Shown here: positions 14 to 19,931 of the stretch, in pieces
How positions within the stretch are numbered: the first letter of the stretch is position 1
Layout: every line of letters begins with the position of its first letter
Virus genome (UHGV): UHGV-0067928
DNA: 24,002 bases
Source of the DNA: a virus
Strand: one strand, 5' to 3'
Made by a program: the position numbers and the translations under genes
The notes under the pieces: generated by a model
What the model was told of the DNA's origin: nothing
What the model saw: only the letters and a program-made list of their open reading frames with translations
Databases searched by the model: none

Positions 14-1207
14 GTGGATAAAATAATTTTACCCACCGGATTTTTACCCATGCTCACCGTTAAGCAGATTGAAGCAGCAAAGCCGAAAGAAAAACCATAC
101 CGCCTTCTCGATGGTAATGGCCTGTACCTTTATGTCCCTGTGTCAGGGAAAAAGGTATGGCAGCTTCGCTACAAGATTGACGGTAAGGAGAAAATCCTGA
201 CTGTCGGAAAATATCCGCTTATGACTTTGCAGGAGGCAAGGGATAAAGCATGGACTGCGAGGAAAGACATCTCGGTTGGCATAGATCCGGTAAAAGCGAA
301 AAAGGCTTCGTCTAACAACAACTCCTTTAGTGCCATTTACAAGGAATGGTACGAGCACAAGAAGCAAGTGTGGTCTGTAGGGTATGCGACTGAACTTGCC
401 AAAATGTTTGATGACGACATTTTACCCATCATCGGCGGTCTCGAGATTCTGGATATTGAGCCGATGCAACTGCTGGAAGTAATCCGCAGATTTGAAGATC
501 GCGGTGCAATGGAGCGAGCCAACAAAGCCCGCAGAAGATGCGGCGAGGTTTTCCGTTACGCTATTGTCACTGGTAGGGCTAAATATAACCCGGCACCTGA
601 CCTTGCTGACGCCATGAAGGGATACCGCAAGAAAAACTTCCCGTTTCTTCCTGCAGACCAGATCCCGGCATTTAACAAAGCACTGGCAACATTTTCAGGA
701 AGCATCGTATCGCTCATTGCGACCAAGGTTTTACGCTATACAGCCCTAAGAACGAAAGAGCTTCGTTCCATGCAATGGAAGAACGTCGATTTTGAAAACA
801 GGATTATCACCATCGACGCCAGTGTGATGAAGGGTCGCAAAATTCATGTGGTTCCTATGTCAGACCAGGTGGTTGAACTTCTCACTACGCTAAGCTCAAT
901 CACTAAACCAGTATCAGAGTTTGTTTTTGCCGGTCGCAACGATAAGAAGAAGCCAATCTGCGAGAACGCGGTATTGCTTGTGATCAAACAAATCGGCTAT
1001 GAGGGTCTGGAAAGCGGTCACGGATTCAGGCATGAATTCAGCACAATTATGAACGAGCACGAATGGCCTGCTGACGCCATTGAAGTGCAACTTGCACATG
1101 CCAACGGCGGATCTGTGCGCGGAATTTACAACCATGCTCAGTATCTCGATAAACGCAGAGAAATGATGCAGTGGTGGGCGGACTGGCTTGATGAAAAGGT
1201 GGAGTGA
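14..1207 (+). CDS. int: Tyrosine integrase, P4-type (site-specific recombinase)
   Basis: 397-aa ORF with the N-terminal pattern typical of P4-family integrases (IEAAKPKEKPYRLLDGNGLYLYV) and a C-terminal catalytic region. ATG at 50 (MLTVKQIEAAKP...) is the more likely true start; GTG at 14 is the longest-ORF start. Confidence 0.9.
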   Translation: MDKIILPTGFLPMLTVKQIEAAKPKEKPYRLLDGNGLYLYVPVSGKKVWQLRYKIDGKEKILTVGKYPLMTLQEARDKAWTARKDISVGIDPVKAKKASSNNNSFSAIYKEWYEHKKQVWSVGYATELAKMFDDDILPIIGGLEILDIEPMQLLEVIRRFEDRGAMERANKARRRCGEVFRYAIVTGRAKYNPAPDLADAMKGYRKKNFPFLPADQIPAFNKALATFSGSIVSLIATKVLRYTALRTKELRSMQWKNVDFENRIITIDASVMKGRKIHVVPMSDQVVELLTTLSSITKPVSEFVFAGRNDKKKPICENAVLLVIKQIGYEGLESGHGFRHEFSTIMNEHEWPADAIEVQLAHANGGSVRGIYNHAQYLDKRREMMQWWADWLDEKVE

Positions 1208-1231
1208 TCCACCTTAACCACTATCGAAGAG

Positions 1232-1282
1232 CACAAAGCCTTGCAATCCAGTGCAAAGCTTTGTGTGTCTCAGTTTTGTTTC
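1232..1282 (+). terminator. Putative intrinsic terminator downstream of int
   Basis: Inverted repeat CACAAAGC/GCTTTGTG with inner TTGCA/TGCAA pairing (1232-1265), followed by T-rich TGTCTCAGTTTTGTTTC. Confidence 0.45.
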
Positions 1283-1351
1283 ATAGGTAATCATGCGTTC
1301 ACTACGATGCAAGAATCCATACCAAATTTTATTTAAAACTCACAAATACAC
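1283..1351. other. Candidate attP-containing spacer between convergent int and tailspike
   Basis: Non-coding AT-rich segment between the two face-to-face terminators, in the position where P22-like phages carry att. No tRNA 3'-end match could be confirmed by eye. Confidence 0.25.
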
Positions 1352-1384
1352 TAGATAAAAACAATCCCGCAGTTTTCATGCGGG
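1352..1384 (-). terminator. Intrinsic terminator downstream of tailspike
   Basis: Stem CCCGCA / TGCGGG (1366-1371 and 1379-1384) with a 7-nt loop; on the minus strand it is followed by ATTGTTTTTAT. Confidence 0.5.
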
Positions 1385-1404
1385 ATATACTGCATTTATT
1401 GCAA

Positions 1405-3879
1405 CTACATTGCCATTAATATAAACATAGCCAATTCGTCATAACGAATTCCGTAGCGTCCACCTGCTTTTTTTACAAGAATCATATTTCCTGTTTTATA
1501 TTGAGAATAAATTTTCTCACCTGTATCAGGATCTGTGCTCTCTTCAGTTATCACCTCTTCATCCCATACGTCTGGCCATTCATCGTAACACCAAAAAGCA
1601 TATTGCTCAGGATTTAAACCATGCTTTCTAAGAATATCTCCTACGGTTTGAGCACCAACTCCAAAATGATACCTTGATAACTCCAATCCTTTAAAATTAA
1701 TCGACTCATTAAACCTGAACTTGCATATAATTCCCTTTATTTCCAGCGCAGCATCACGCTCTGCCTGAGTAATGTCATATATTGTTTTAAGTGTTTCATC
1801 TGATGTGCTTATAGTCCCGGATGCAGAATAAATCTGAGCCCATCTAAATGATGGTGCACCAAGAGATTTGCTGTTATCAATAATTGGTGAAAAATTACCT
1901 TTAATGGCAATATTTCCAGAGTCGCCGAATATATTAATAACTGCAGAGTCATCACCATGGTTTTTTACGCTTAAGTTTCTTGATGAAATATTTATATCTT
2001 TGTTATATCCACTAACATAAATCCATCTTTTACCATCAATGTGATGCCCGGAAATATTTCCGTTTGATTGTTCGTCAGGTGACTCTCTAAGAACAATAGC
2101 ATCTACTCCAGACGACCATTGTATTTTTGTATCTGTAGGCCTCCAGTTCTTTATAATGAACGAACCATCAGTAAACTCCGTTTTTATTTGTCTATTGTCT
2201 ACAAATGCGTCTCTTGGTTTAAACTCACTTGTGTTAACGCTGCTCTGAAGATCAGAAGCAAAAAATCTAAGATTTCCTGTATAACCCTGAGTCTCGGTCA
2301 GGTTATACGCAATCATAATTCCATTTTCAAACTCAGATGATGTTATTTTAACATCACGGCAATCACCAAAAATGCAATTTCCTTTATCAAATGTTGTTTG
2401 AGCTTTGAATTTATCAAACCTTAAATTACGAACAGGGAAACCATCAACCTCTAATGCAAAGGATGCAGGAAGGCCAAAGTATTCTGATGGCTTACCTGAT
2501 GTATGATCAAGAGTAGTGGCTACTGTATTCTCAAAAACAGTCCCGCTAAAATTATTACCAATTGACGGAAACCTGATTACACTTATTGTACCTTGTATTT
2601 CAGGAGAAATACCAGATAGTGTGATGTTAGTTCCATCAAATGATGCATCTGAATACGTATATACTGATTCACTGCCAGCAATTTTAAACTGTTTAACTGA
2701 AGTTATTCTCATCGACTTTTTATGTTTAAATGTCACTGAGCTTTCAGTATTACTTACAAGATCAATCTGAGGGCTATTCCTTATCGCGATTCCTGACTGG
2801 ACATAAACGTTATTAAAGTGCGTTTTTTCAGGATTTCCCTTCATTGAAAGGCTCCCGTCATTTTCTGTCAGTAGTAGTCCTTTTACCCTCCAATAGCCGA
2901 CAATCTGTACGTTATCAATAACTGAATCACAGCTATCGTATACATGCAACCCTATATCCCAGTTATCACCCAATGAATAAGAATCAGGGTTATTGTATCC
3001 TTCAATACCATTTTTACTTACCATTATTCTCAGATTGCGTAACTGTGATGCCCTGTTGATACTAACAGCTACGCTCATGGCTTTTGGTGTAGCAGGAGTA
3101 ACACCTACAGAATCTTCATTCGTAAACTCAGTGAACTTACAAGATATCCCTTCAACAATTTTAGCTGGTCTTTCATTAGAGATGTTAAAAAAATATTTGT
3201 TTTTTTCTCCATCACCAGTAAATACAAGATGGGTTCCTTTACTCCAACTTTTTAATAATCTTTCAGGCGCTGGTCTATATGTGTCCCAATAATCAATGCC
3301 AGATCCAACCAGTGAACACCCCTCAGGAATGTTAATATTCTTCTTGATGATGCATATTCCTTCAGGAATTGTTATAACCGACCTTCCAGAGTTTAAAGCT
3401 TTAATAAAAGCATCTGAATCATCTGTTACCCCATCTATTTTTGCTCCCCACCCTCTAACATCTCCACAATCTCTCCATCGTGCCATCTGCAACTCAGGAT
3501 ATTTTTTAGCGCCATCTGGATCTTCTAATTGCTGCCGTAGCTGATCGGGGTCATACTTCAGCACATTAGGAAAATAGAACTGCTGCGCACCATACGCATC
3601 GTATACAGCCATAGAATGGCCTTGCACAGTTACGAACTTGGCAATCTGTCCGTTATATACCGGATATCCAGCAGCGTTAATGATGATTGGCTGCGAAACA
3701 GGAACGTGAGAACCGTCTTCATTCTCCACATAAACCTGAATCTGGTTTTCAGGATTTACTGGGTCAGTGTCAATTTTACCGATATAAATTTTGCCATTGG
3801 CTACGGCTTTAAAAGAACGAGCCATAGTGAAGAGTTGAGAAGGCATGCTCACTACAACATTGGCTGTAATGTCTGTCAT
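1405..3879 (-). CDS. Tailspike protein: P22-type head-binding N-domain, beta-helix receptor-binding/depolymerase body, C-terminal S74-like autochaperone domain
   Basis: N-terminus [11 protein letters not shown]...[12 protein letters not shown]...VLKYDPDQ closely follows the P22 gp9 head-binding domain. Repetitive beta-helix-like middle. C-terminal ~130 aa begin [11 protein letters not shown], resembling the intramolecular-chaperone (peptidase S74) domain of endosialidase-type tail fibres. SD GGAG lies 8 nt upstream of the ATG. Confidence 0.9.
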
Positions 3880-4014: not shown

Positions 4015-4038
4015 TAAAAAAACCCAGCCGAAGCTGGG
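4015..4038 (-). terminator. Intrinsic terminator between ant and tailspike
   Basis: On the minus strand: CCCAGC-TTCG-GCTGGG followed by eight T. Matches the terminator known between ant and gene 9 in P22. Confidence 0.6.
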
Positions 4039-4057
4039 TCGTTGCGTTGGTTATCTG

Positions 4058-4981
4058 TCAGTAGTTATGTACTGAAGGAGGTAATTCTTTATTCTTAAGT
4101 CTCATCCATGCGGAAATATTCGTTGGTCCGTCTGGCTCATTGATATCAACATCTCGTGTGTGATTGATTAAAACGTCTCTCGCCATTCCGATAACATACG
4201 AGAATTCATGACCGTAGTCGTAGCATCTGCCGGAATAGTTCGATTGAATTTGTTTTAATGCCGGATACAGTTCGCGGAATAATGCCTGTGAGCGGTTGGC
4301 ATAATCCCATAGCCATACAAGGCTGTTTGCTTCTTTTGCAGAAAGCTCGTTGGTTTTCTTCTCTTGTTTGCCAATGAACTCACCTTCAAGCGGAACTCGA
4401 GCTGCAAGTGACAGTGCTTCGGTAAACTGCTCCTCACTGATTTCTTTGTATGAACATCCAAAATGGGATTTCAGTGACGACCACATGGTGATCATCGCCT
4501 TAGCCTGTTTTTCCTTTGGCAGAGACTGACCGCGACTCATGACGAGTTGTTTAATGGCTTCCTGCTGTTCAGTGGTGATTTTACCCGGCAACGCCTTTTT
4601 AGCTTTGCGTGGGTTAACTACATGACCTTTAGTCCAGTACTCATAGAGCACATCGTCACACTCTTCCTGATACTGGATTACCTTGTCGCGGATTTCAGGG
4701 CGGACTTTGTTAGGGCTGATGGTTTGCAACCAGCCATTCAGTTTACGTAAAGCAAGGCAAATCATGGTCTGCACACCGCCAACTGAAGGTATTGCGATTT
4801 CCACAATACCTTTAGCAAATCTTTGTTTTAACTTTGTAAACTGTGAAGCCCAATCCATACCCATTCCCTCAACGATAGGTTTCATTGGGGTATACGGTTC
4901 GCCGTTGTGATTGACAACATAAAGCTCTGCGCCGTGGAATGGTACATTGATAGTAGATACTGCTGTTGCTATACTTTTCAT
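4058..4981 (-). CDS. ant: Antirepressor Ant
   Basis: 307 aa. The N-terminal region (MKPIVEGMG...[24 protein letters not shown]...[15 protein letters not shown]) matches the AntA/P22 Ant family; it sits downstream of arc as in P22 immI. Confidence 0.8.
4947..4975 (+). promoter_or_regulatory. Putative Psar promoter (antisense to ant)
   Basis: -35 TTGATA (4947-4952), 17-bp spacer, -10 TATACT (4970-4975), located within the first codons of ant on the opposite strand. Confidence 0.45.
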
Positions 4982-5054
4982 GTCGTTAATTCCTATGCGT
5001 GGTTTTACGATACCGAAGCCCTGACTGTTCCAGCAGTTGGGGCTTCAACTTTTT
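4982..5054 (+). ncRNA. sar: Sar-like small antisense RNA covering the ant ribosome-binding site
   Basis: About 70 nt from the predicted start after Psar to the hairpin GAAGCCC...GGGCTTC (5015-5046) plus TTTTT (5050-5054). Complementary to the ant start/RBS and arc 3' end, the same architecture as P22 sar. Confidence 0.4.
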
Positions 5055-5185
5055 AGGCTGCGAATAAGACGCTGCACTATTTCTGAATTTAAAGACCTGC
5101 CCTCCTCCTTAGCCTTTTCCTTCAATTTTTCTTTAATCTCTGGCGGGATACGAATCCCTAATGGAGCGATGTCTCTAACTTTCAT
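5045..5185 (-). CDS. arc: Arc-like ribbon-helix-helix repressor
   Basis: MKVRDIAPLGIRIPPEIKEKLKEKAKEEGRSLNSEIVQRLIRSLKS (46 aa) shows the Arc/MetJ pattern (GRS-NSEI). The ATG at 5185 is preceded by GAGGTG; the longer ORF-track start at 5245 has no RBS. Confidence 0.75.
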   Translation of the reverse strand: MKVRDIAPLGIRIPPEIKEKLKEKAKEEGRSLNSEIVQRLIRSLKS

Positions 5186-5199
5186 TTCCACCTCACTTG

Positions 5200-5283
5200 C
5201 TACACCGTGACAACTAAATACTACACCGTGTTTATTTAAAGTCAAAAATTTTTTGCCTACACTGTGTAGCTACGCACAGTGTG
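5200..5283. promoter_or_regulatory. Divergent arc/ant and mnt promoter-operator region
   Basis: Direct repeats CTACACCGTG at 5200-5209 and 5221-5230; palindrome CTACAC-T-GTGTAG (5257-5269) inside the longer inverted repeat ACACTGTG...CACAGTGT (5259-5282). Candidate minus-strand promoter: -35 TTGACT (5240-5245), -10 TAGTAT (5218-5223). Confidence 0.5.
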
Positions 5284-5294
5284 CAGGAGGAGAA

Positions 5295-5546
5295 ATGAAA
5301 GGTGCAAGAGATATCAGTCCATTGGGGATTAGGATTCCAGACTATTTAAAGAAACGCATTCAGCAAGAAGCGGATAAAAACGGCAGATCAATGAACTCAG
5401 AGATTGTGCTTATCCTTCAAAAACATGTTGATAATCTTGATGGCTCTCGCTCACTTGAAGGATTCGCTAACCAAGAAGCTGATAAATTCAAAGAGGCGCT
5501 GCTTGAGACGCTGAGGAACATGCAAGAAAACAAAAAACCCACCTGA
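5295..5546 (+). CDS. mnt: Mnt-like ribbon-helix-helix repressor
   Basis: MKGARDISPLGIRIPDYLKKRIQQEADKNGRSMNSEIV... (83 aa) has an RHH N-domain and C-terminal helix like P22 Mnt. SD AGGAGG lies 5 nt upstream of the ATG at 5295, divergent from arc. Confidence 0.75.
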   Translation: MKGARDISPLGIRIPDYLKKRIQQEADKNGRSMNSEIVLILQKHVDNLDGSRSLEGFANQEADKFKEALLETLRNMQENKKPT

Positions 5547-5559
5547 AGGTGGGTTTAGT
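5538..5559 (-). terminator. Intrinsic terminator of the two-gene operon (convergent with the mnt 3' end)
   Basis: Minus strand: ACCCACC-TTCA-GGTGGGT followed by TTTTTGT, immediately after the TAA of the 149-aa gene. The stem overlaps the last codons of mnt. Confidence 0.6.
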
Positions 5560-6004
5560 CAAACATAGTGTTTCTAAAGTCTCTCGCATACCCTGCTAAC
5601 ACTCTCATTCTATTATGATTGTTAGCAGACATGTGAGCTACAGGATGAAAAAGAGCAATCAATGAATACCTGTTCTCATCAAAAAGATTTTGTGCATAAA
5701 CGAGAGCGGTATTGGATGTTTTATGCCACTGCAACTTTTGCGGTGTGCTGATATCTGTGCCATTTTTTATTGGCTCAAATTTATTTTCACCAATTGCTAA
5801 ATGAAGGTGCATAAGACCTGCATCTTCAATATCAGGAGGCCGATGATAAGAGGTGTCTCTGCCAAAATAGCTGGGCAACGTTCCCGTAGACTTGTAGATG
5901 ATAAAATCATCTACAAGTGTTTGTTTTAAATCAGGAAACTCAACAAAAACCGGGGAGAAAAAATAGTCAAAACTATCCTGATTATATTCCACGGTTACTT
6001 GCAT
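5555..6004 (-). CDS. Hypothetical protein, 149 aa; candidate toxin/effector of a two-gene module
   Basis: SD GAGG 7 nt upstream; start lies 8 nt after the stop of the upstream gene. No confident domain; a faint recalled resemblance to YafO-family toxins (FGRD, HLHL segments) is unverified. Confidence 0.6.
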   Translation of the reverse strand: MQVTVEYNQDSFDYFFSPVFVEFPDLKQTLVDDFIIYKSTGTLPSYFGRDTSYHRPPDIEDAGLMHLHLAIGENKFEPIKNGTDISTPQKLQWHKTSNTALVYAQNLFDENRYSLIALFHPVAHMSANNHNRMRVLAGYARDFRNTMFD

Positions 6005-6012
6005 GTTTTACC

Positions 6013-6579
6013 TCAGTGGAAGTTACCAGAGTGAAACACACGAGTCCCGTGCTCAGCAAGCGCACACAAACCAGCCATATCTACGGAACTATCAAAAACA
6101 ACCGGAACACATGAGCGTTGTTTAATAAGACTATTCAGGTTAGTTACGGCAGATCTAGCATCAGCAACAACGATATAGATATCTCTTGCGATCTCTTTAA
6201 AATCAGCAGAAGCTTCTTTGAATACCGATTTCATTGCCCCTTCAAGTCCTCTCAATTGATGCTCTATCAATCGAGACTTTTCTGGTTCAATGATAGACAA
6301 CACATTGTCTACATTCTCATCGGTAGCGTTTGCAAGAACACGATAAGCGTATTTCAGCATTCGAGACAATTCTTTAATCGAAGACACCGCCTCATGAAGC
6401 TCATTATTAGCCCGTTCACTGCTGAATGAGGATTGATGGTAAGCGTGCTGAACGTTATCAGTAACAACCACCTCACAACTGAACGCAGAAGCTTGCTGTA
6501 ATAGCAAACCTATTGCGACTCCAGCTTTGGCAGCGTTCAAGCTAAACATTTCATCAATCCCATTAGTCTCATTGCTCAT
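6013..6579 (-). CDS. Hypothetical protein, 188 aa; first gene of the two-gene module
   Basis: The ATG at 6579 is preceded by AAGGAGG with a 5-nt spacer; the ORF-track start at 6609 is less likely. Predicted helical, no recognisable motif. Confidence 0.6.
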   Translation of the reverse strand: MSNETNGIDEMFSLNAAKAGVAIGLLLQQASAFSCEVVVTDNVQHAYHQSSFSSERANNELHEAVSSIKELSRMLKYAYRVLANATDENVDNVLSIIEPEKSRLIEHQLRGLEGAMKSVFKEASADFKEIARDIYIVVADARSAVTNLNSLIKQRSCVPVVFDSSVDMAGLCALAEHGTRVFHSGNFH

Positions 6580-6646
6580 ACAAACCTCCTTCTTATCGGA
6601 GATTATCAATAGCTATGTATCCATTGAATACACGCTATGCGCAGTA

Positions 6647-6675
6647 ATTCTACGTCACGTGATATCATTATGCAA
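6647..6675 (-). promoter_or_regulatory. Putative promoter of the two-gene operon
   Basis: Minus strand: -35 TTGCAT, 17-bp spacer, -10 TAGAAT. The spacer contains the overlapping palindromes TCACGTGA and TGATATCA. Confidence 0.45.
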
Positions 6676-6750
6676 CCACCGTTCTATCACCAGTAGATGA
6701 TGCCTCTCCATACATCATCTGGTATCCTGCTCAAAACTAAGGAGGTTGGT

Positions 6751-7101
6751 GTGAATGCTCAGTCTGTCATCATGGTTTTCCTTGGGCTGATTGTCGCAAA
6801 ACTATATCCAGACTGGTGGAAAGGGGCATTAGCTACTGTCGCCATCTATTTGCTTTTATCCATCGTTAAGCGATCACTCGCTGAGACCGTAAATCAAGCA
6901 AAACGTTTCTCATTTAAGAGTTTAATAAACTATGTTACTGGGCTTATTTTTTGCCTTTCAATTCTGATCGCTTCGGCTTTTTTGCCCGTATCAATAGCTA
7001 ATTTTTTTGGCGCACCATATGAGGTAGGTTATCTATTCTCTGTTTCCTGTCTTGCCATTGCTCTTCTTTACCTTTGGACGAGATCAAAGAATAAAAATTA
7101 G
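6751..7101 (+). CDS. Small integral membrane protein (about 4 TM helices); candidate superinfection-exclusion or immunity protein
   Basis: The GTG at 6751 is preceded by AAGGAGG; the upstream ATGs at 6697/6700 lack an RBS. Four hydrophobic segments. Transcribed divergently from the two-gene operon, opposite to the late genes. Confidence 0.55.
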   Translation: MNAQSVIMVFLGLIVAKLYPDWWKGALATVAIYLLLSIVKRSLAETVNQAKRFSFKSLINYVTGLIFCLSILIASAFLPVSIANFFGAPYEVGYLFSVSCLAIALLYLWTRSKNKN

Positions 7102-7130
7102 CCATCCGTGGCTGCCAGTTATTGAGTTTC
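7100..7130 (-). terminator. Weak putative terminator after gp16
   Basis: Minus strand: AGCCA-CGGA-TGGCT followed by AATTTTTATT. Short stem. Confidence 0.3.
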
Positions 7131-9134
7131 TTTTTGTGATGCCTGTGCGACTCTGGTGAGCGATTGTGTGACCGTACTGATCGCTCTGTCATATGCTGTG
7201 CTACCTTTTGGCGTATTTGCCAGACGTAACAAGGCATTTCGTATAACAGGGCTTTCGTATGCCTTCGCTGCTCCTCCTACGACACCAGCAGCAGGAACAA
7301 CAAACGCAGCCGTTTTTAGCATCCCCGCTAATACTGCTGCGTTTATGATGCCACCACCAACTAACAATCCATAAAGCTGCTGACCATTTAAGTTTTGAAC
7401 GTTCGCTTTTGCCGCGTGTCTTGTATCGTTGAGGTATTTAATAACGCCGTCCAGTTCCTTTCCATGTACGCCTTTAAAGAAAGTTGCTGATTGCTTCCTG
7501 TTCCGGTGTAACGCATTAATAAACTTTTCAACACTAATATTTCCAGACGGATCAGTCGCCTTATCTACAGCATTCTGAACTATGGCTGCTCGTGCGTTTT
7601 GCCTACCATTGTCATCCAGAAGCCTGTAAAGCTGAGAACGTTCTGATGGGTTTTGGCTAAAAACGAGTTTTGTTACATCCTCAGGTGTAGCCTTGCCGCT
7701 GGCTATTGCCTTTTGAACGCGCGTTCTTCCCATCATGTCATTGAATCTAGCCCATGAGCGATCAACCCTAGACATATTGGCAGCTTCTTCTGAGCCTAGT
7801 TTTTGGGATACTGCTTTTTTCATATCCGCTGTATATGCCTTGTAGACAATATCGCTGGCTTTCTGGAGCGTATCTTTATCAACAGTGTCAGATGACGCCA
7901 TAAATCGCTTTCGAAGATCGGTTCTGTTTTCCCTCGCCAGACGCAGGTCATTTGGTCCGCTGGTGATATCGTCTTTAAATTGCTGCAAGACTTTTACCGC
8001 GGCTCTATCCTGAGATTTGCCCGGGCGGCTTAACACGGCAATCTGATTGTCGATAGCTTTTACCGTGTTTGAGAGATCGACAGGGGTATCCCCCATAGCG
8101 TCAATTATGCGGTTATATCGCTTTCCTGCTGCCTCAATGAATTTTTGCTGCCCTTTAGTCGCAGACTCATAAAGCTGTTTATCTGAAATTCCCCCCAGAC
8201 CATCGCTAAATGTTCTGACTAAATTTTCTCGTGCTTGTTGTTGATTCAGTCGGTTCTTACCGGTTCCAAAAAAAGGAACTCTTTCGCCTAATGTTTGGGC
8301 CTGCCCCTGCATAAAGGTTTTATCTTTCAGCGTGTCACTGGTCATTAACGGCAGGTTTCTTTCCGACGCAAAATCGACAGCAGCCTTTGCTTCCGGTGAC
8401 ATCTCACCGCGAACAGCCCTGGAAACCGCACTAACTGTATTTTCCAGCCCCTTGCCAACACCACCAATGCCAGCAGAAATTACCGTTTGTGCAGGATCAA
8501 TATCTTCTCCTCCAGCAAGACTGGTGCCACCCTGTAGTGCTAAATCTGTAGCAGCTGATTTCCCTATGGCACCAAGCACCGTTCCAGCCCTGCCCGCTGG
8601 TGTGAACGCTAACGCATTAGCAAGAAACGAAGTCAGGTCTTGCGGTGATAAACCTGGCTTGTTCAGGGCATAATCACCGGATGGCAGGGAAACGATAGTG
8701 TTACCCTTCTCATCCTGCCTTAATTTCGCCCCCATACTCTGAAGAATCTTTTCCTGAGACGCCTCGGAGCCGAAAAGTTGAGACCATCCAGCCTTCAGGG
8801 CATCCATGCTTAGTGAGTTCAACTCAGGGGCAGCCCCAACATTTTGCAGTCTCTCCATTTCTGGTGTCATTCGGCTTTCACCGGTAACGGCATCGCGCAT
8901 TGCAGCACCTAAAACAGCCCCTTGCTCAGCAGAGCGATCTAGTCCTTCCTTCTGCTGAGTGGCAAGCTGTGTATATCCTGATGCAAGTGAGTTGTCTGCT
9001 GGCGATTGCTGAACACCTTGTTGTGTTGGCGCTGACTGACCAGCAAAATACTCATCAATGGCGGTGCCAATATCTTCCGTGCTCGTACCATCAGGGAAGG
9101 TAAATGTCTTACCGTTTGCAGTTACTTTCATCAT
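7119..9134 (-). CDS. Ejection (E) protein, P22 gp16-like
   Basis: 671-aa ORF in the gp16 position, last gene of the 14-7-20-16 block. Start ATG overlaps the gp20 stop (ATGA). Confidence 0.7.
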
Positions 9135-10582
9135 TCCACCGTAAATTGAATGCCTGATTTTGACGTGTAGCTACCTCCTGCTGATTGCTGAGTAGCTGGC
9201 TGTTGCCTTGATGATTTCTTCCCGCCATTACCAACATTAACGTTATATTGCTGGTTGTAATTGTCGGTATATTGCTGAATGTCGCGCATTGATTGTTGCA
9301 GTGCTTCAGGGCTTGAGAAATCAGGCTTTGGCATACCCTGAAAATACCTATTGGCCTCTGCTTCGGTGTTGATGCCAGATGCCCCCATATCTCGGGCTGC
9401 TGCAATCCCCTGATTTTGCATTTTGCCCATGATTCGCTGTGCAGCGTTGTATAGCGTCCTCTCCTCAACACCAGATGCCCGGCTACGAATATCTGCACCA
9501 AGAGCAAAAGAACCTGAAGAACCTGTAATACCTGTCATGAAGCCAAGATCGTCAATTGATGCGCCAGAAATTGCATCAAGATCTTTCTTCATTTCGTAAT
9601 TCTGTGCATTAGCTGCCGATGTAGCCGGAGCAGCAATAGAACTTGCGGGGACGCGAATCATATTGCCCTCGTTGTCTATTCCTTCGTAGAACGCATTAGC
9701 ACCAGCGCCGTGAAGCTTCCTACCAACCGTTACCGTTCTACCATCTGCCAGTTGCACAACATTCTCCCCGCCAGCAGCAGGACGGCCTCGAACACGAAGA
9801 TATGTCTTTTGTTGCTCTGGAGACAGGCTGTTGAAATATTGATATTCTTTAACAGATGCAGGAACAGCACCTCCAGCAGTGCGCAGAGAGTTTTCACGGC
9901 TAACAGCAATGCTTTGCGCCTGTAAACCTTCCCCAGCTTTATTGCTGCGAATCGTCTCTGCCAACTCGCCGCGCTCAATATCCCGACCTTCCATTCGATC
10001 TTTGATATCGAAGTACTTCTCATGACCGAGAGAAAACAGCGCCAGATTACCTGCGAAATGCTGGAAGCCCTGCGGGTCATTAACCTGCATTTCAGCAATA
10101 GTTTCTGGAGGGATACCTAAACGACGCATCTCCTGCTCATTATCCATCATGAACCTGCCAAATGCGCCCGGACCAAGCGATGAGGCTACCTGTGCTTTGA
10201 GCGCCAGATTGCCATAATCATCCCTTTGAGCATCATCGACATAACTCATCCCTTTACGGACTTCCTCAAACTCTTCTGGGAATGCTGTAATAAGATTACG
10301 CATCTGCTCCCTGTCGCCGGACGCATAAGCATCTGCATAACCTTTCTGGAATGCCGCTTTACGCTCCTGCTGTTGCTGCTGCTTATAAATATCAGCAACT
10401 CCAGCCAGACCTCGAAGACCTGTCAGACCAACGTTATTTGCACCTGAGCGAGCCAGTTCATTGTTTTCGCGGATCAGACCAAGCGTTGCGTTAATGTCGC
10501 TTGCCTTTGGCGCATTCTCATTTTGCGCACCAATTCCAGCCAGAAAACCACCAGAATTAATACCCTGTTGCCACGTAGCCAT
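9131..10582 (-). CDS. Ejection protein, P22 gp20-like
   Basis: 483 aa against about 471 for P22 gp20; Gly/Ala/Gln-rich; positional synteny. Confidence 0.7.
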
Positions 10583-10592
10583 TGATTACCCC

Positions 10593-11288
10593 TTAATAAA
10601 GCAGTGAACTAAGCAGACCGATACCAGCACCGATACCAGCACCCCACGGAGTTGATGAACCAATTAATTTCGCAAGTCCAGCCCCAGCAATAGCACCAGA
10701 CGCACCCCCGCCAATAGCAGATTGCATTGCTGATGGTCTGTTGGCATTTGCCGCTGCAAGAGCCGCACTTTGCTGCGAAATCTGACTCATGTTGTTGGCA
10801 TATGTCTGCCCGGCGTTTGCCTGACCTTGCAGTGCGCCAAGACCAATATTTGCCAGATTCTGGTAGTTGTTCATCTGACCAGATAGCCATTGCTGACCAA
10901 GCGTTGGTGCGATTGTTGCTAACTGATTACTGGTTGCGGTGGAACCTAATCCACCTGTTGCTTCCGCTGCCGCCAGACTCTGATAGCGAGCCTGACCAGC
11001 AAGATCTTTGTACTGCTGAGAGTTGTAATACTGGTTAAGCGCCTGACCTTGCCCCTCCAGAGACGATAAGTTCTCGAGGCTGCCGACATACTTCTCAGCC
11101 AGAGGAGTAAACGGCTTCAGGTTATTCATGATGGTGTTGAACTGCTGATTTTGCAGGTCTGCGGCATACTTCTGAGCTTCTGCTGCATACTTTGCGCTTT
11201 TATCAGAACTGCCACCTTTCCCGCCTTTTTCAGGGCAATAAGGTTCCTCGCCGCGCAGTTTTCTGCCCAGCTTAAATGCATATAACAT
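10593..11288 (-). CDS. Ejection protein, P22 gp7-like
   Basis: 231 aa against about 229 for P22 gp7; Q/A/G-rich with a hydrophobic C-terminus; synteny. Confidence 0.65.
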   Translation of the reverse strand: MLYAFKLGRKLRGEEPYCPEKGGKGGSSDKSAKYAAEAQKYAADLQNQQFNTIMNNLKPFTPLAEKYVGSLENLSSLEGQGQALNQYYNSQQYKDLAGQARYQSLAAAEATGGLGSTATSNQLATIAPTLGQQWLSGQMNNYQNLANIGLGALQGQANAGQTYANNMSQISQQSAALAAANANRPSAMQSAIGGGASGAIAGAGLAKLIGSSTPWGAGIGAGIGLLSSLLY

Positions 11289-11290
11289 GG

Positions 11291-11746
11291 CTATCTCCCG
11301 TGATTCAGGAAGTCGATTAGTTCTTCGCGTGTGGCGCTGTAAAAAGTCACGTCATCCACGCCTTTAAAGTATTTCTTGATGGTTCCTACACGCTTAAGGC
11401 CAATCATTGCGCAGTACATCTGACCGTGGCGGAATTTGCGTGCAGCGAACGATGTGACGCACTGAACGGTGGTGTTAGTCAGAATGTATCGCCAGAACGC
11501 CAGCCCGATTTCCTTGCTGAAGCCGCGAATCTCTGGCAGGTACATGGCGTGGCAATCGAATGTCAGCGGCTGAATCTCCTGATAGTAAACAATGCCGCCG
11601 AACTGCCCGTGCACGTTCACCTCAAAGTAACGGCATTCAGGTTTGTAGTCGTATCCATCGCCGTTGTTGCTCCCGGCGATAATGTCAGGGTGATTTCCTA
11701 CTGCTTCGATCAGGTCGATGTTTCGCGTTGGTTTGAATGTAATCAT
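11291..11746 (-). CDS. P22 gp14-like protein
   Basis: 151-aa ORF directly downstream of gp26, with start overlapping the gp26 stop (ATGA). Assigned by position only. Confidence 0.55.
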   Translation of the reverse strand: MITFKPTRNIDLIEAVGNHPDIIAGSNNGDGYDYKPECRYFEVNVHGQFGGIVYYQEIQPLTFDCHAMYLPEIRGFSKEIGLAFWRYILTNTTVQCVTSFAARKFRHGQMYCAMIGLKRVGTIKKYFKGVDDVTFYSATREELIDFLNHGR

Positions 11747-12447
11747 CAGTCAATCAGCCCATGTAATCTAAGTGCTGTTTCAAGCGCCAGAATACGCTGC
11801 CGCGCCTGCTGCAAACCTGTAGCGAGAGCCGCGACTTCGGATTGCGTGTACGTAGTGCCGACCGTGTATGACTGGTTAGCGTTGAATGAGCCAAGAAGAG
11901 GTGTACCTGTGGCTGCAGTCCATCCGGTCTGCCTTGCTCCAACGACCTGAATTCCATCAACTGAATATGATGTTTTTACATCCAGCGGTGACGCAAGAGA
12001 CTGCGATTCGGTTACGGTTTTCGATACGTAATCACTCTTAATGTCAGATACATCGCTTTCTACGCCATCCAGTCTTTGGTCAACAGTGACCAGATGCGCC
12101 TGAATATCGATAACCTCATCCAGCAAGTAATCAACATCGCTACGCAGTACGACTATCTTCCCTTCGGCGGTTGTTAACCTGACCTCAAGGAGATTTATCG
12201 CTTTTGTGTTTGCGGTGATTCTTGCATCGTGGTCAGCCAGTTCGACATCCTGTTCATCGTTTTTCACCTGAGCATCGTAAGCGCCCTGACCAGCCTGATT
12301 TGCCTTCCCGGCAATTGCGCCGACATCAGCCCCCTGATTAATGACATACAGCAGGTAAGACTGGCTGAAGATATTGCGTGGAAGGATTGATGTATCGAGT
12401 CGTGTAGCCTGAATTGTTACCGGCTCATTGAGATTCGAATCAGCCAT
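11746..12447 (-). CDS. Tail needle protein, P22 gp26-like
   Basis: [25 protein letters not shown]...[30 protein letters not shown]...[13 protein letters not shown] follows P22 gp26 along its length (233 aa). Start chosen at the ATG at 12447, which has GGAGG 7 nt upstream. Confidence 0.85.
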
Positions 12448-12985
12448 TAACATGCCTCCACGATTTACCAGACTGGATATTGTGAATCACCGTCTGACTG
12501 ACACAGTATTTTTTAGCAAGCTCTCTTTGATTAACTCCCTTTGATTTCTTTATTTCTATTACTTGCTCATATGAGAGCTTTGAAATTGGATTATTTTCTC
12601 CTTTTAAAGCCGGAAACTTCACCCTGCCTTGAGATGAGCAATGCTTCATATTCTCCTTTTGAGTACACCACTCTAAATTAGAAGCATTATTATTTTTTCG
12701 GTTGTTATCTATGTGATTTATGAACGGCTTGCCTTCTGGATTGGGGACGAAAGCAAGAGCGACAAGCCTATGCACAAGCCATTTTACTTTAACTCCATCA
12801 ACACTAAGTGGCAAATATAGATAACCTTTATTATTCTCGTGTTGTTTTAGCCACCGACCCTTTCTGAGTTGCGTGCTGCCATGAGCAGCCTTAACAACAC
12901 GTGAGTGAGAATATACTCGCCCATCCTCTGTTACGGCATATAAACCTTCATATCCAGGAATATCTTTTGCGTTTTCACTCAACAT
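12440..12985 (-). CDS. HNH homing endonuclease (NUMOD4-like N-terminus plus HNH motif)
   Basis: N-terminus [18 protein letters not shown] and HNH core [23 protein letters not shown]; SD AAAGGAG. Lies between gp10 and gp26, which are adjacent in P22. 3' end overlaps the gp26 start. Confidence 0.8.
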
Positions 12986-13005
12986 ATCTACTCCTTTAGT
13001 TTCGA
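12845..13005. repeat. Direct repeat copy A (5' end and leader of HNH gene)
   Basis: About 160 bp that are near-identical to 14815-14985, including an identical ~47-nt run CCTTTCTGAGTTGCGTGCTGCCATGAGCAGCCTTAACAACACGTGAG. Confidence 0.7.
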
Positions 13006-13006
13006 T

Positions 13007-14425
13007 TTATGTTACACGAATAGAAAGGCCTGATAATGTAACAGGACCTTTTGCAATAACTCTGAATTTAAATCCAATGAGGCGTCTAACTCGACCAACT
13101 TTTCGCCATAAAACGCGATTGTCATATACAAATGGTTTTTGTAATACGACCATTTGCTCACGACCGTAATTAATTCCATCTGTAGTTGCTGATATAAATA
13201 TTCTATCTATTCTATCACACACGCCGCCAGATGTTTCTAATTCAAGGTCATTTATTAAAACGTTATCTGCCTTTATTAAAGGAGAATATAAAATATGTTC
13301 CTGTTGCTTGTCGTACTGGCTGCTGATGTCGAATTGCAATTTCCCGGTCACGGACTCCAGCTTATCGCCGCACGTTATCTGATTGCCTTCGTAAATGAAG
13401 TCGATAGCGCGGTACACATCGTCATACAGGCCTGTTTTCAACACACACCATTGCGGACCATTGGCGCTTGAAGATGCGTCGTACACCAGAACATGGCGCG
13501 GAAGATGGATAATCAGCAGCTCATGCGCATCAAATCGCAGCGATTCCATCACGCCATCAGCCAGTTCATCAGCAGTGTAGGAGCGGAGGATTTTCTCAAT
13601 GCTCGCGCTGGCGATTGGTGACACCTGACCTGAGCCGATGATGTATACAGACGGCGCACCTGTTGCCGGATTGCTGATGAACGCATACGAATCAGCGAAT
13701 GGAGTTTTGCAATAAGTCCCAGCAATACCTTTCTGCACCATCAGCGATGGCTGTGCGACATACAAAGCGGCACCAACAGTGGTTGCACCAGTCAGGGAGA
13801 AATATTCAATAGTCGATGAACCAAAGCAGACGATGAAGTCTCGCCATGTCCCGATACCGATGATGCCGTCCGGCTGAGACTCGGCACGATATTGTGCACT
13901 GTAGCGGTCAGGATGCGATTCGTCTTCAAGGTCAGTGATAAACCATGAATCCGTGCCGTCTTTTGACCACGCATAACGCCCACGTAAGCGTGTAATGTCG
14001 CGGACTGAACCTAACTCATACTGAGTGAATCCGCTGTCTGTAGGCCAGTTTGAGACGGTTTTAACCGTGCCATCATAACGATACTCGACCAGTTGACCAT
14101 TAACGCCTACAGCCTGAGATGTCCGACCATGAGCCATTGATACTCGACCACTTCCGGCAACATCACCGACCTCACTTTCGCCCTTATACAGTTTGCCACC
14201 ACACACGCGATAAACAGCATTCTGCGCCATGTTGTACTCGACGCCGCGAGATACACCGTTCACATCAGAGCGTTTGGCAATGCCCGGGAATGAGCGAAGA
14301 TATCCCGATGAATTCAACACCTCCTTGGGCGTAGCTAAAAGATTGACTGGAAGTTGGTCTATATAATCAGCATTAACCGCACTTTTCCCCAATCCCTTCA
14401 TTAGTGGTAGTTGTTGTATTGCCAT
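13007..14425 (-). CDS. Tail hub protein, P22 gp10-like
   Basis: 472 aa, the same length as P22 gp10; N-terminus MAIQQLPLMKGLGK...ADYID..LPVNLLATPKEVLNSSGYLRSFPGIAKR matches the gp10 family. Confidence 0.85.
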   Translation of the reverse strand: MAIQQLPLMKGLGKSAVNADYIDQLPVNLLATPKEVLNSSGYLRSFPGIAKRSDVNGVSRGVEYNMAQNAVYRVCGGKLYKGESEVGDVAGSGRVSMAHGRTSQAVGVNGQLVEYRYDGTVKTVSNWPTDSGFTQYELGSVRDITRLRGRYAWSKDGTDSWFITDLEDESHPDRYSAQYRAESQPDGIIGIGTWRDFIVCFGSSTIEYFSLTGATTVGAALYVAQPSLMVQKGIAGTYCKTPFADSYAFISNPATGAPSVYIIGSGQVSPIASASIEKILRSYTADELADGVMESLRFDAHELLIIHLPRHVLVYDASSSANGPQWCVLKTGLYDDVYRAIDFIYEGNQITCGDKLESVTGKLQFDISSQYDKQQEHILYSPLIKADNVLINDLELETSGGVCDRIDRIFISATTDGINYGREQMVVLQKPFVYDNRVLWRKVGRVRRLIGFKFRVIAKGPVTLSGLSIRVT

Positions 14426-14957
14426 TGGAATCAGCCTTTATATGAACCCAGTTAGCATCACGCTTTAGCCTACTTGCCCAGGTCTTAGATATTCCGTACT
14501 TAGCCGCAATTACTGACAAGCTTTCTTTTGATGACTTGATTGCAAGAACATCGTCATCACTCAACTTGTGCTTTGGGTGCTTGGTTCCGAAAAACTTGAT
14601 TGGTTTCTTTAATCCGGTGGCGTATGCATGTTTGATGTTTTCGCTTTGAGTGCACCACTCAAGATTATTGACGTTATTATTGAGTGGATTGCCATCAATA
14701 TGATTTACCTGAGGCTTGTTTTCAGGATTTGGCAGGAATGTCATTGCAACGATTCGATGGGCAAAAGTCCATTTTGCTCCGATATTATAAAGCACCCTTC
14801 CCTGATTTATTTTAGGCTTTAACCAGCGCCCCTTTCTGAGTTGCGTGCTGCCATGAGCAGCCTTAACAACACGTGAGCGAGAATACACCCTGCCATCTTC
14901 TGTTACGGCATAAACACCTTCAAATCCAGGTATATCTTTAGCATTCTCAGAAAGCAT
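14373..14957 (-). CDS. HNH homing endonuclease (paralog of 12440-12985)
   Basis: First ~47 residues almost identical to the other HNH gene; HNH core NHIDGNPLNNNVNNLEWCTQSEN; SD AAGGAG. Inserted between gp4 and gp10, with its 3' end overlapping the gp10 start by 53 nt. Confidence 0.8.
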   Translation of the reverse strand: MLSENAKDIPGFEGVYAVTEDGRVYSRSRVVKAAHGSTQLRKGRWLKPKINQGRVLYNIGAKWTFAHRIVAMTFLPNPENKPQVNHIDGNPLNNNVNNLEWCTQSENIKHAYATGLKKPIKFFGTKHPKHKLSDDDVLAIKSSKESLSVIAAKYGISKTWASRLKRDANWVHIKADSNGNTTTTTNEGIGEKCG

Positions 14958-14985
14958 ATCTACTCCTTAAAGTTTCGATTTTTCA
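14815..14985. repeat. Direct repeat copy B (5' end and leader of HNH gene)
   Basis: Partner of 12845-13005. Confidence 0.7.
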
Positions 14986-14993
14986 TGTACTTA

Positions 14994-15098
14994 TTATATC
15001 AAAATTGCCAGCATATTCACTGGCAGATAGTCGATATAGTCGGCGTTTCGAAAGTCTTTGCCGACACCTTTCATAAGCGGAAGTTGCTGAATAGGCAT
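14994..15098 (-). pseudogene. Relic 5' end of gp10 (34 codons) stranded upstream of the HNH insertion
   Basis: Translates to MPIQQLPLMKGVGKDFRNADYIDYLPVNMLAILI-stop, with its own SD AGGTGA, 8 nt after the gp4 stop. Homologous to the N-terminus of the intact gp10 at 14425. Confidence 0.6.
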
Positions 15099-15106
15099 TT
15101 ATTCAC

Positions 15107-15589
15107 CTATGCGTTTGGGATATCGCCATCAATCAGAGGGAGATCGCCTGGATAATATCGGTCAGATGTGAACACGTCATATTTATTACCCTGTCCTACA
15201 GGAAAATCTCCACGTCGTCGTATTGAAGGAACAACCAGAGTGTCGGTAATCAAGGCATCATATGAGCGTTGGGCGTTACTGAGAACTTGCTGAGTTGGTT
15301 CAAGGCTGTAATCAGATAGCATTCTCAGCAATAACTGATAGCCTACTGCGTGTTTGTATTTTCTTGGAAGACCTGACTCATCATCTGGTAATGGCTGATC
15401 ATCTCCAGTTGCGAAAGCGTAACCAATGTCGCCGGGGTTAATCATCCACTCGGACATCATATCTTCCAGATCATTTACACCATCTTCAATTGATTGCGGC
15501 TCAACATCAGTCAGCGATGCGTTAGAAGCAATAGCAAACTTACGAAGCGCAAAAAGGACGATCTCACCCTTTGTCAGTACTGTTGCCAT
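15107..15589 (-). CDS. Head completion / tail adaptor protein, P22 gp4-like
   Basis: ALRKFAIASNASLTDVEPQSIEDGVNDLEDMMSEW matches the P22 gp4 N-terminal pattern; 160 aa. Confidence 0.85.
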   Translation of the reverse strand: MATVLTKGEIVLFALRKFAIASNASLTDVEPQSIEDGVNDLEDMMSEWMINPGDIGYAFATGDDQPLPDDESGLPRKYKHAVGYQLLLRMLSDYSLEPTQQVLSNAQRSYDALITDTLVVPSIRRRGDFPVGQGNKYDVFTSDRYYPGDLPLIDGDIPNA

Positions 15590-15749
15590 TGTCTGCCGCC
15601 TTACGACCTCGCTTACTGGTCGGTTTCAATTCATCAACTGAGGCAACAAAGCCCAACTTTTCGAAAAACTTGAAGTCTTTTTCTGTGATAACGGCCTGTA
15701 CATGCCCGGATTCGTTATCTGCGGCAAGGAATACACTCATGCGATCCAT
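15564..15749 (-). CDS. Small hypothetical protein (61 aa) between coat and gp4
   Basis: SD AAGGA 6 nt upstream of the ATG, directly after the coat terminator. Overlaps the gp4 start by 26 nt. No homology recognised. Confidence 0.4.
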   Translation of the reverse strand: MDRMSVFLAADNESGHVQAVITEKDFKFFEKLGFVASVDELKPTSKRGRKAADNGNSTDKG

Positions 15750-15760
15750 ATTGTTTCCTT

Positions 15761-15787
15761 AAAACATAAAAGGGGCGTAAGCCCCTT
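15761..15787 (-). terminator. Intrinsic terminator immediately downstream of the coat gene
   Basis: Minus strand: AAGGGGC-TTAC-GCCCCTT followed by TTTATGTTTT. Confidence 0.6.
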
Positions 15788-15791
15788 GTTA

Positions 15792-17063: not shown

Positions 17064-17074
17064 TTATCTTTTCC

Positions 17075-19688: not shown

Positions 19689-19713
19689 ACGGAAGCAACC
19701 GAAACCACCAGCA

Positions 19714-19923: not shown

Positions 19924-19931
19924 GGACTTAC

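Follow-up and report, generated by a model that had tools for sequence, protein, structure and literature searches.

A mosaic tailspike gene with a P22-type head-binding domain, an exchanged beta-helix body and a predicted self-cleaving chaperone in a defective Escherichia coli prophage

We analysed a tailspike gene and its surroundings in a window of 24,002 nt (the whole stretch of viral DNA under study). The features of the locus are collected in Table 1. The tailspike ORF (1405..3879, minus strand) starts with ATG and runs over 2475 nt with no interruption. Its product matched the PHROG family phrog_1171 ('tail spike protein') at E 2.7e-204, NCBIfam gave no informative model for it, and 20 complete E. 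coli genomes contain copies of 98-99% nucleotide identity under the annotation 'phage tailspike protein'. Upstream of the gene lie ant (4058-4981), Arc/Mnt-like ORFs (5045-5546), a P22 portal recognised by Pfam and ORFs for the coat, scaffold and ejection proteins, colinear with annotated P22-like prophages. The tailspike occupies the position of a P22-like virion block (ejection proteins ... ant, tailspike), and the order ant, terminator, tailspike, terminator, convergent int is that of Sf6 and CUS-3. The place of the hairpin at 4021..4040 is annotated 'terminator' in HK620 and epsilon34.

Table 1. Features of the tailspike locus, in window coordinates.
Feature	Position	Strand	Details
IntS-type tyrosine integrase (int)	50..1207	+	Convergent with tailspike; Pfam Phage_integrase, Phage_int_M, Arm-DNA-bind_3
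int-tailspike spacer, empty	1208..1404	.	197 bp; GC 0.376
Terminator-like hairpin and T run, directly after the tailspike stop	1364..1386	-	8-bp stem with 5 G-C pairs and tail TGTTTTTATC, by consensus scan
Tailspike CDS	1405..3879	-	824 aa, 91.6 kDa; stop codon 1405-1407; ORF list
Intramolecular chaperone / S74 self-cleaving domain, aa 693-824	1408..1803	-	15.3 kDa; phmmer, Foldseek, PHROG (domain alone)
Predicted general base K698	1786-1788	-	
Predicted nucleophile S693	1801-1803	-	
C-terminal stalk before the cleavage site, aa 651-692	1804..1929	-	R679 at 1843-1845; D668 at 1876-1878
Receptor-binding beta-helix body, exchanged block, aa ~193-694	1797..3301	-	
Neck/linker and first beta-helix coils, aa 114-192 (...GWGAKxDGVTDD)	3302..3540	-	CUS-3, 9vvr and PF12708 matches
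Head-binding (virion-anchor) domain, aa 1-113	3541..3879	-	Pfam PF09008
Terminator-like hairpin between ant and tailspike	4021..4040	-	Consensus scan

The sequence-only reading held that serotype-conversion genes are missing and that nothing lies between the tailspike and att; the first point was borne out. No conversion gene was found between int and the tailspike, and the ORF list contained no ORF of at least 50 aa in the 1208-1404 spacer. By annotation, this slot holds oac in Sf6 and neuO in CUS-3, whereas it is empty here; the gtrABC genes that stand beside the spike of P22 are likewise missing from the side of this tailspike. A Pfam search of ORFs with no obvious P22 counterpart (6013-6609, 6697-7101, 20965-21555 and 22669-23469) returned zero matches, so that no acyltransferase or glycosyltransferase family was seen in these four. 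For the other long ORFs (7119-17959), a virion role was assumed from an arrangement colinear with that of the annotated prophage in KSC207. The placement of att, however, was wrong. Since a tRNA search of the whole window found none, att was located through related loci. The order in E. coli NCCP12480 is argW tRNA-Arg, intS (385 aa) and convergent tailspike, and the annotated attP core of Sf6 lies upstream of int. Together these indicate that int stands between att and the tailspike and that att lies off the left end of the window; an att inside the int-tailspike spacer was rejected on the same two arrangements.

The first ~110 residues had been read as a P22-type head-binding domain, and profile and structure-database searches confirmed this. 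PF09008 (Head_binding) matched over its full length (1-113/113; E 2.9e-67, 224 bits against a cut-off of 24), and the PDB matches of the domain were 7sg7 (Sf6 gp14), 8tvr/2xc1 (P22 gp9) and 1lkt. Residues 1-118 aligned with Sf6 gp14 (7sg7) nearly residue for residue (E 6e-65), and P22 gp9 matched at E ~1e-50. At the nucleotide level, the domain is about 91-93% identical to those of Sf6, HK620 and CUS-3. Behind the anchor, PDB entry 9vvr matched aa 114-194 and PF12708 matched aa 141-196 with a score of 28.4 bits, above its cut-off of 27. Residues 114-192 form a recombination-prone adaptor region, and the change point in GC, at about 3440-3470 (aa ~137-146), falls inside it. The GC content is 0.437 over aa 1-113 and 0.369 over aa 114-824 (GC3 0.266). 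A sliding-window run identified 1208-3459, which overlaps the gene, as the 2.25-kb segment of lowest GC in the 24,002 nt (0.366), about 4 sd below the segments outside it (mean 0.466, sd 0.023, minimum 0.411), in agreement with the earlier description of the body as AT-rich. The low GC reaches beyond the beta-helix: the C-terminal domain has a value of 0.366 and the spacer to int one of 0.376.

The body itself is a right-handed parallel beta-helix of the pectate-lyase type, for which a PDB sequence search found no close solved homologue. The AF2 model was a monomer built from a 57-sequence alignment; single-sequence AF2 of the full protein gave a pLDDT of 35.9. Across the homologue alignment, the carboxylates D308, E339, E351, E477, D509 and E518 of the body are invariant, which makes them candidate catalytic residues. 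Module exchange between phage types was seen directly. Positions 1797-3301 (aa ~193-694) are 98.7% identical at the nucleotide level and, over aa ~193-692, 97-100% identical at the amino-acid level to the tailspike of an epsilon15-like prophage (cluster P0006, 918 aa, 654 members; e.g. strain ECONIH2), while the chaperones of the two tailspikes share just 27-47% identity, and the drop in identity between body and chaperone is located at the cleavage motif. Apart from the common receptor-binding body, the P0006 protein differs in its N-terminal anchor, which we take to be of the epsilon15/phiV10 type from its N-terminus (MTVSTEVDHNEYTGNG...), in its S74 chaperone and in its surroundings, as its gene adjoins holin and GH19 endolysin genes of another phage type. 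Bodies at least 99% identical at the nucleotide level occur on two unrelated virion platforms, those of P22-like and epsilon15-like podophages. Among homologues the body was found behind five N-terminal anchors (Head_binding, Tail_spike_N, Phage_T7_tail, Phage_tail_fib and Head-tail_con), and the module is carried by 29 of 5426 complete genomes, four of which have it in two places. The nearly identical block next to so divergent a chaperone bears out the proposal that the body was acquired by module exchange. The core of the sequence-only reading is supported: the tailspike is a mosaic in which a head-binding domain of the P22 type precedes an AT-rich beta-helix of foreign origin and a chaperone of the self-cleaving type.

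The C-terminal domain had been placed at about 1408-1805 and likened to self-cleaving intramolecular chaperones absent from P22 gp9. These limits hold, as the SDETLK motif begins at aa 693 (1786-1803). The assignment was to be given up if no S74 match appeared. By Pfam score alone the outcome was borderline, with PF13884 giving 21.4 bits, or 21.7 for the N-terminally trimmed protein (E 2.4e-4 to 3e-4), and missing the gathering cut-off of 22 by 0.3-0.6 bit. However, phmmer matched the domain to five solved chaperone domains, namely 7y5s (Kp7 gp51, 2.7e-17), 4uw8 (T5 pb1, 6e-13), 6eu4 (AS12 gp42, 8.4e-12), 3gw6 (endoNF, 2.3e-10) and 3gud (phi29 gp12, 7.6e-7); 9vvr also matched, the domain alone also gave PHROG matches, and 51 of the 57 homologues matched PF13884 at E <= 0.001. 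In T5 pb1 the catalytic-site residues are D1239, R1250, S1264 and K1269, with cleavage at T1263-S1264 (PMC4690869). Residues D668, R679, S693 and K698 of the tailspike align with these four, T692-S693 aligns with the T5 cleavage site and is the predicted scissile bond, and T692 and S693 each show at least 90% conservation across the 57 homologues. The preceding stalk matched positions 118-160 of Pfam End_tail_spike (20.7 bits, under the cut-off); it can be aligned both to the very end of endosialidase 4hiz and to residues 1239-1263 of T5 pb1. The C-terminus of the AF2 model, a monomer and so not informative on the trimer, has the chaperone-domain fold, with pLDDT block means of 78-95 over model residues 581-711 and Foldseek matches to 4uw8 and 3gw6 (E ~1e-9) and to 3gud (target-normalised TM 0.76). 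Altogether, the phmmer matches, the catalytic residues, the Foldseek result and the homologues settle the identity of the S74 domain that the Pfam score had left in doubt. As in endoNF (3gw6), T5 pb1 (4uw8), phi29 gp12 (3gud) and Kp7 gp51 (7y5s), which it resembles in sequence and predicted fold, the domain has a conserved Ser/Lys dyad, partnered by an Asp and an Arg, and sits right after a C-terminal triple-strand stalk, but the mature protein attached to it is another one and it carries an extra insertion (aa ~775-800).

Among known systems, the closest architectural relative is CUS-3 (E. coli K1 prophage, CP000711), also a P22-like prophage, in which the genes for an IntS-type integrase and the tailspike converge. 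In its endosialidase tailspike the P22-type head-binding domain and the neck recur (89% identity over aa 1-163), followed by a foreign enzymatic body, a stalk and a C-terminal S74 chaperone, and the SDxTLKT motifs are aligned (TSDGTLKT in CUS-3, TSDETLKT here). The two bodies differ in kind, that of CUS-3 being a sialidase specific for the K1 capsule and the one here a pectate-lyase-type beta-helix, and the chaperones are only 34% identical. P22 gp9, Sf6 gp14 and HK620 gp9 share with this tailspike the head-binding domain (E 1e-50 to 6e-65), the concept of a trimeric beta-helix depolymerase and a gene placed after ant or the ejection genes, but their beta-helices are unrelated in sequence to the body found here. 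The tailspikes of P22, Sf6 and HK620 keep their C-terminal domain uncleaved and lack an S74 chaperone (PMC3357383).

The surrounding prophage is a deletion remnant in which a truncated portal is fused to a truncated ssb. Roughly 120 positions of the profile are missing at the start of the portal ORF, whose junction with the 3' end of ssb lies at ~19711/19712, and no terminase, lysis, late-regulator, replication or immunity genes are present. The region from terminase to replication has been lost, and the tailspike is an intact gene in a defective element. Colinearity of the right part (after 19711) with KSC207 was considered and rejected as a joining artefact, since KSC207 has those early genes upstream of int. 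Because of the deletion, this copy of the tailspike could not be mounted on a virion made by the same element. That the gene is a relic, an unexpressed passenger of a dead and decaying prophage with no present host function, is a serious possibility that we stop just short of favouring: the truncated portal and the missing genes speak for it, as does the result that no complete E. coli genome spans the portal-ssb junction, yet the reading frame is unbroken, copies elsewhere share 98-99.8% identity with it, the deletion may be recent, and the spike might still serve helper phages whose hubs are of the P22 type. Another reading makes the C-terminal domain a degenerate S74 relative that stays attached without autoproteolysis and acts as a distal receptor-binding or stabilising knob. 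We regard this as very unlikely. The PF13884 score below 22 and the subtype insertion at aa ~775-800, absent from 7y5s and 9vvr, would suit such a knob, but the Ser/Lys dyad is conserved, as are its Arg and Asp partners and the Thr just before it, the E-values against five cleaving homologues go down to 2.7e-17, and near relatives such as P0007, 62-75% identical in the domain, pass PF13884.

The proposal of a capsule or polysaccharide depolymerase is reasonable from the fold; assignment of a substrate was attempted and none was reached. Colanic acid was considered because of phrog_8280 ('colanic acid degradation') and rejected. This family matched just aa 1-365 of the full protein, and the match vanished once the head-binding domain and neck were removed; phi92, whose gp150 is a characterised colanic-acid enzyme, was not among the listed tblastn matches of the body. 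A literature search on the related phage DIJ06P1 found nothing. The seven typed carriers of bodies at least 99% identical comprise four O types (O15, O83, O5 and O6), with E50-type, W4, N-01, EC17GD31, Combat2C1 and others lying outside the typed set. As there are at least four O types among carriers of near-identical bodies, the receptor cannot be read from the hosts. An O-antigen cluster at the argW-type distance of ~346 kb was not found in DP051, E50 and EC17GD31, because their prophages lie at other chromosomal sites. One possibility, which we put forward tentatively, is an endoglycosidase specific for O antigen, like the tailspikes of P22, Sf6 and HK620, whose cognate serogroup would be O15; the carriers of other O types would then reflect O-antigen switching after lysogeny or inherited defective prophages. 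The target of the body may instead be a capsular polysaccharide or one that does not depend on serotype (K antigen, colanic acid, ECA or another exopolysaccharide), in the way that the CUS-3 tailspike acts on the K1 capsule, a reading that we judge rather unlikely. It draws on the spread of four O types over seven typed carriers and two unrelated virion platforms, on CUS-3, the nearest relative in architecture, being a capsule depolymerase, and on the finding that wca genes adjoin the O-antigen cluster in all four inspected carriers (ECONIH2, where the set is complete, and NCCP12480, DP051 and LR-60, where it is partial within the stretch viewed). Exchange of capsule-specific tailspikes between P22-like coliphages and Klebsiella phages has also been reported (bioRxiv 10.64898/2026.05.19.726188). 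Against it stand the origin of the phrog_8280 label in the head-binding domain and neck, the absence of phi92 among the listed body matches, and the rarity of the module, which is odd for a phage with a universal receptor.

Based on the above results, we propose with good confidence that this is the gene for the homotrimeric tailspike of a temperate E. coli podophage of the P22-like group (Lederbergvirus-type, CUS-3/Sf6-related), and that the spike is built from four recombining modules. Residues 1-113 would plug the spike into the tail hub in the manner of the P22 and Sf6 head-binding domains, and a short helical neck (aa ~114-140) would lead into the first coils of the beta-helix. The right-handed parallel beta-helix (aa ~141-660) would bind and most likely cleave a host surface polysaccharide, with D308, E339 and E351 as candidate residues. 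The chaperone (aa 693-824) is predicted to template trimerisation of the C-terminal stalk and then to remove itself by Ser693/Lys698-dependent autoproteolysis at T692-S693, aided by D668 and by R679 of a neighbouring chain, and its release would leave a mature spike of 76 kDa.

Phages such as CUS-3 already show this modular design, and the tailspike studied here is an ordinary, well-built example of it; beyond the receptor question, it adds one more member to a well-described class and leaves the concepts unchanged. Should phages of O5, O6, O15 and O83 hosts all rely on this near-identical body, its receptor may be a surface glycan common to these hosts and not the O antigen, and such O serotype-independent recognition, if true, would be unusual for temperate P22-family coliphages. 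We consider it improbable that the glycan is O serotype-independent and that, in addition, the SDxxxK motif is a natural recombination joint at which any S74 chaperone can fold any body through the conserved stalk. The locus is a clean natural example of tailspikes assembled from anchor, neck, body and chaperone cassettes, with recombination joints at domain borders, one of them at the autoproteolysis motif, and is useful for the engineering of chimeric receptor-binding proteins and for the prediction of host range from prophage sequence.

The tailspike gene encodes a P22-family tailspike of modular build that carries an S74 chaperone, like that of CUS-3. Near-identical copies already carry the RefSeq label 'phage tailspike protein', and the remaining window holds P22-type ejection, tail-needle, coat, scaffold and portal genes. 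We also observed that an HNH endonuclease gene lies between ant and the tailspike gene in some relatives (Combat2C1, FDAARGOS_1256 and phage Kapi1) and is absent from the window.

Coordinates of the tailspike gene and of the features discussed with it
Feature	Position	Strand	Remark
IntS-type integrase gene (int)	ATG 50, stop 1207		convergent with tailspike; limits follow from the annotated length of 385 aa
Terminator-like hairpin	1386..1364	minus	downstream of tailspike
Tailspike ORF	1405..3879	minus	uninterrupted, 824 aa
Terminator-like hairpin	4040..4021	minus	upstream of tailspike
Antirepressor gene (ant)	4058-4981		upstream of tailspike, as are Arc/Mnt-type ORFs
Portal ORF, P22-type	17973-19688		without about the first 120 profile positions

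As the sequence-only reading had proposed, the N-terminus is a P22-type head-binding domain: Pfam Head_binding matched residues 1-113 over their full length (E 2.9e-67), and the same residues aligned with Sf6 gp14 (7sg7, E 6e-65) and P22 gp9 (E about 1e-50). The DNA of this domain is 91-93% identical to that of numerous P22-like phages, HK620, Sf6 and CUS-3 among them; the similarity reaches as far as window position ~3541 (aa 113) in Sf6 and HK620, and on to ~3443 (aa ~145) in CUS-3. Residues 114-194 (..GWGAKxDGVTDD) match the equivalent part of an 843-aa tail spike (PDB 9vvr) as well as the start of the pectate-lyase-like family PF12708 (28.4 bits, cut-off 27), and the PDB sequence search found no solved structure with sequence similarity to the rest of the body. 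An AlphaFold model of aa 114-824 built on 57 aligned homologues (34-81% identical) had a mean pLDDT of 88.5, against 35.9 for a run on the single sequence. Six carboxylates, D308, E339, E351, E477, D509 and E518, are invariant in the family and may be regarded as candidate catalytic residues.

We then examined the C-terminal domain, which had been read as a self-cleaving chaperone. Pfam Peptidase_S74 (PF13884) matched aa 693-755 over the whole model and narrowly failed the gathering cut-off (21.4 against 22 bits); however, the assignment is supported by four independent lines, namely phmmer, residue correspondence with T5 pb1, Foldseek and the homologues. In phmmer, five solved chaperone-bearing proteins matched the domain: 7y5s (E 2.7e-17), 4uw8 (T5 pb1, 6e-13), 6eu4 (8.4e-12), 3gw6 (endoNF, 2.3e-10) and 3gud (phi29 gp12, 7.6e-7). 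In T5 pb1, S1264 and K1269 are required for cleavage at T1263|S1264, and R1250 of a neighbouring chain forms the oxyanion site together with D1239 (PMC4690869). The HMMER alignment places T1263|S1264, K1269, R1250 and D1239 at T692|S693, K698, R679 and D668, with the motif SDETLK starting at aa 693. Foldseek aligned the C-terminus of the model to 4uw8, 3gw6 and 3gud. Moreover, PF13884 was matched by 51 of the 57 homologues at E <= 0.001, and T692/S693 are kept in at least 90% of them. Autoproteolysis at this site is predicted to release a 15.3-kDa chaperone from a 76.4-kDa mature chain (aa 1-692).

The mosaicism of the tailspike is seen directly, beyond inference from GC, which bears out the proposed module exchange. 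Over window positions 1797-3301 (aa ~193-694), part of a gene present in E. coli ECONIH2 and in eight more complete genomes matches at 98.7% identity, and the ends of this match are sharp. The ECONIH2 gene, annotated 'tail fiber domain-containing protein', adjoins genes for holin and GH19 endolysin, and its prophage is of another type. Its 918-aa product belongs to a protein cluster of 654 member sequences (P0006) whose N-terminus, MTVSTEVDHNEYTGNG..., we take to be that of an epsilon15/phiV10-type tailspike. Between aa ~200 and ~680 the protein is 97-100% identical to this cluster, and in the chaperone identity drops to 27-47%; the right-hand junction thus falls on the cleavage motif. Another phage record, YDC107_2, is 87% identical over the chaperone block (window 1355-1806). 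In the wider family, the body-plus-chaperone unit follows Head_binding, Tail_spike_N, Phage_T7_tail, Phage_tail_fib or Head-tail_con N-termini. Earlier systematic work on receptor-binding proteins described how their head-binding, pectin-lyase-like and intramolecular-chaperone domains are shuffled (PMC10684548), and the same has been described for P22-like coliphages (bioRxiv 10.64898/2026.05.19.726188).

Base composition agrees with the suggestion of an AT-rich body. The head-binding part has a GC of 0.437 and aa 114-824 one of 0.369 (GC3 0.266), with the switch near 3440-3470. Among all 2.25-kb windows of the 24-kb sequence, 1208-3459 has the lowest GC (0.366); those outside it have a mean of 0.466 (sd 0.023, minimum 0.411). 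Since the chaperone and the int-tailspike spacer also fall in this low-GC block, the imported segment starts in the neck and extends past the end of the gene.

P22 gp9 has no cleaved chaperone (PMC3357383). The closest known system is the CUS-3 endosialidase tailspike, which has the same plan: it is 89% identical over aa 1-163, its catalytic body differs, and a stalk follows and then a chaperone that is 34% identical, with the cleavage motif aligned.

The claim that nothing lies between tailspike and att had to be corrected. E. coli NCCP12480 is annotated in the order yfdC, tRNA-Arg (argW), intS, convergent tailspike and ant; Sf6 has its annotated attP core upstream of int and oac between int and tailspike, and in CUS-3 neuO fills this slot. 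These arrangements indicate that att lies beyond int, on the far side from the tailspike, in this phage group. The window begins some 49 nt before the int ATG, leaving att outside it, and a tRNA search of the window found none. The absence of a conversion gene beside the tailspike holds, the int-tailspike slot being empty (197 bp). The Pfam scan covered four ORFs without an obvious P22 counterpart and matched none of them to any family, and hence to no acyltransferase or glycosyltransferase; the remaining long ORFs, being colinear with the annotated KSC207 prophage, were taken as virion genes. Taken together, what the sequence-only reading observed is confirmed and its interpretation was largely right; the exceptions are the position of att and a Pfam score that is borderline.

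In region 17973-19931, the portal ORF abuts the 3′ end of ssb (...DFDDDIPF, opposite strand) at ~19711/19712, and beyond ssb a 3'-5' exonuclease and then Ead/Ea22 genes lie on the other strand from the portal. No complete E. coli genome spans this junction, and the prophage is missing terminase, lysis, late-control (late-regulator), replication and immunity genes. Therefore, either the tailspike gene is intact within a prophage that has suffered a deletion, or this point of the assembly is chimeric.

Several neighbouring features were also noted. A YafO-family toxin ORF (5555-6004, minus; Pfam E 3.4e-22; GC 0.378) has a 198-aa ORF without Pfam match directly upstream (6013-6609, minus); the pair looks like a moron in the immI/sieA region and is possibly a toxin-antitoxin or defence pair. 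Between it and the ejection-protein genes, a 134-aa ORF (6697-7101, plus), hydrophobic by eye and without Pfam match, has a position that would fit a superinfection-exclusion-type membrane protein. The tailspike region has its best nucleotide match (99.3%) at 5156-8654 of the NZ_OZ040490.1 locus. This match has emrE, ybcL and ybcM (DLP12-region genes) as neighbours and no adjoining integrase, and its ant is split; it represents a further degraded copy, in a third site on the chromosome. The chromosome record of KSC207 (NZ_CP019558.1, locus 1-29171) contains a P22-like element whose genes follow phage-circle order: erf, abc, Ead/Ea22, torI (xis), intS, convergent tailspike ... portal, terminase. 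Its early-left genes run directly into int, which suggests that it integrated in tandem or in some other unusual way, or that the assembly is at fault.

The body is present in 29 of 5426 complete E. coli genomes, in a P22-type gene in 20 and an epsilon15-like gene in nine. O15, found in 100 of the 5426, is somewhat enriched among carriers, in two integration sites, and there is clearly no single O type; 17 further P22-type carriers include none of the roughly 84 O15 genomes listed. Either the O antigens were switched after lysogeny, which is plausible because in four carriers some 45-62 kb separate the prophage from the O-antigen cluster, or the receptor is something other than O antigen. A PHROG label, 'colanic acid degradation', was set aside, as it derives from the head-binding domain and neck only. 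Body matches total 33 places in 29 records, and NZ_OZ040490.1, NZ_CP019243.1 (Combat2C1), NZ_CP121153.1 (E57) and NZ_CP196906.1 (ECE170) have two places each; such hosts may each hold two prophages that share this receptor-binding module. The body is shared by phages of O5, O6, O15 and O83 hosts.
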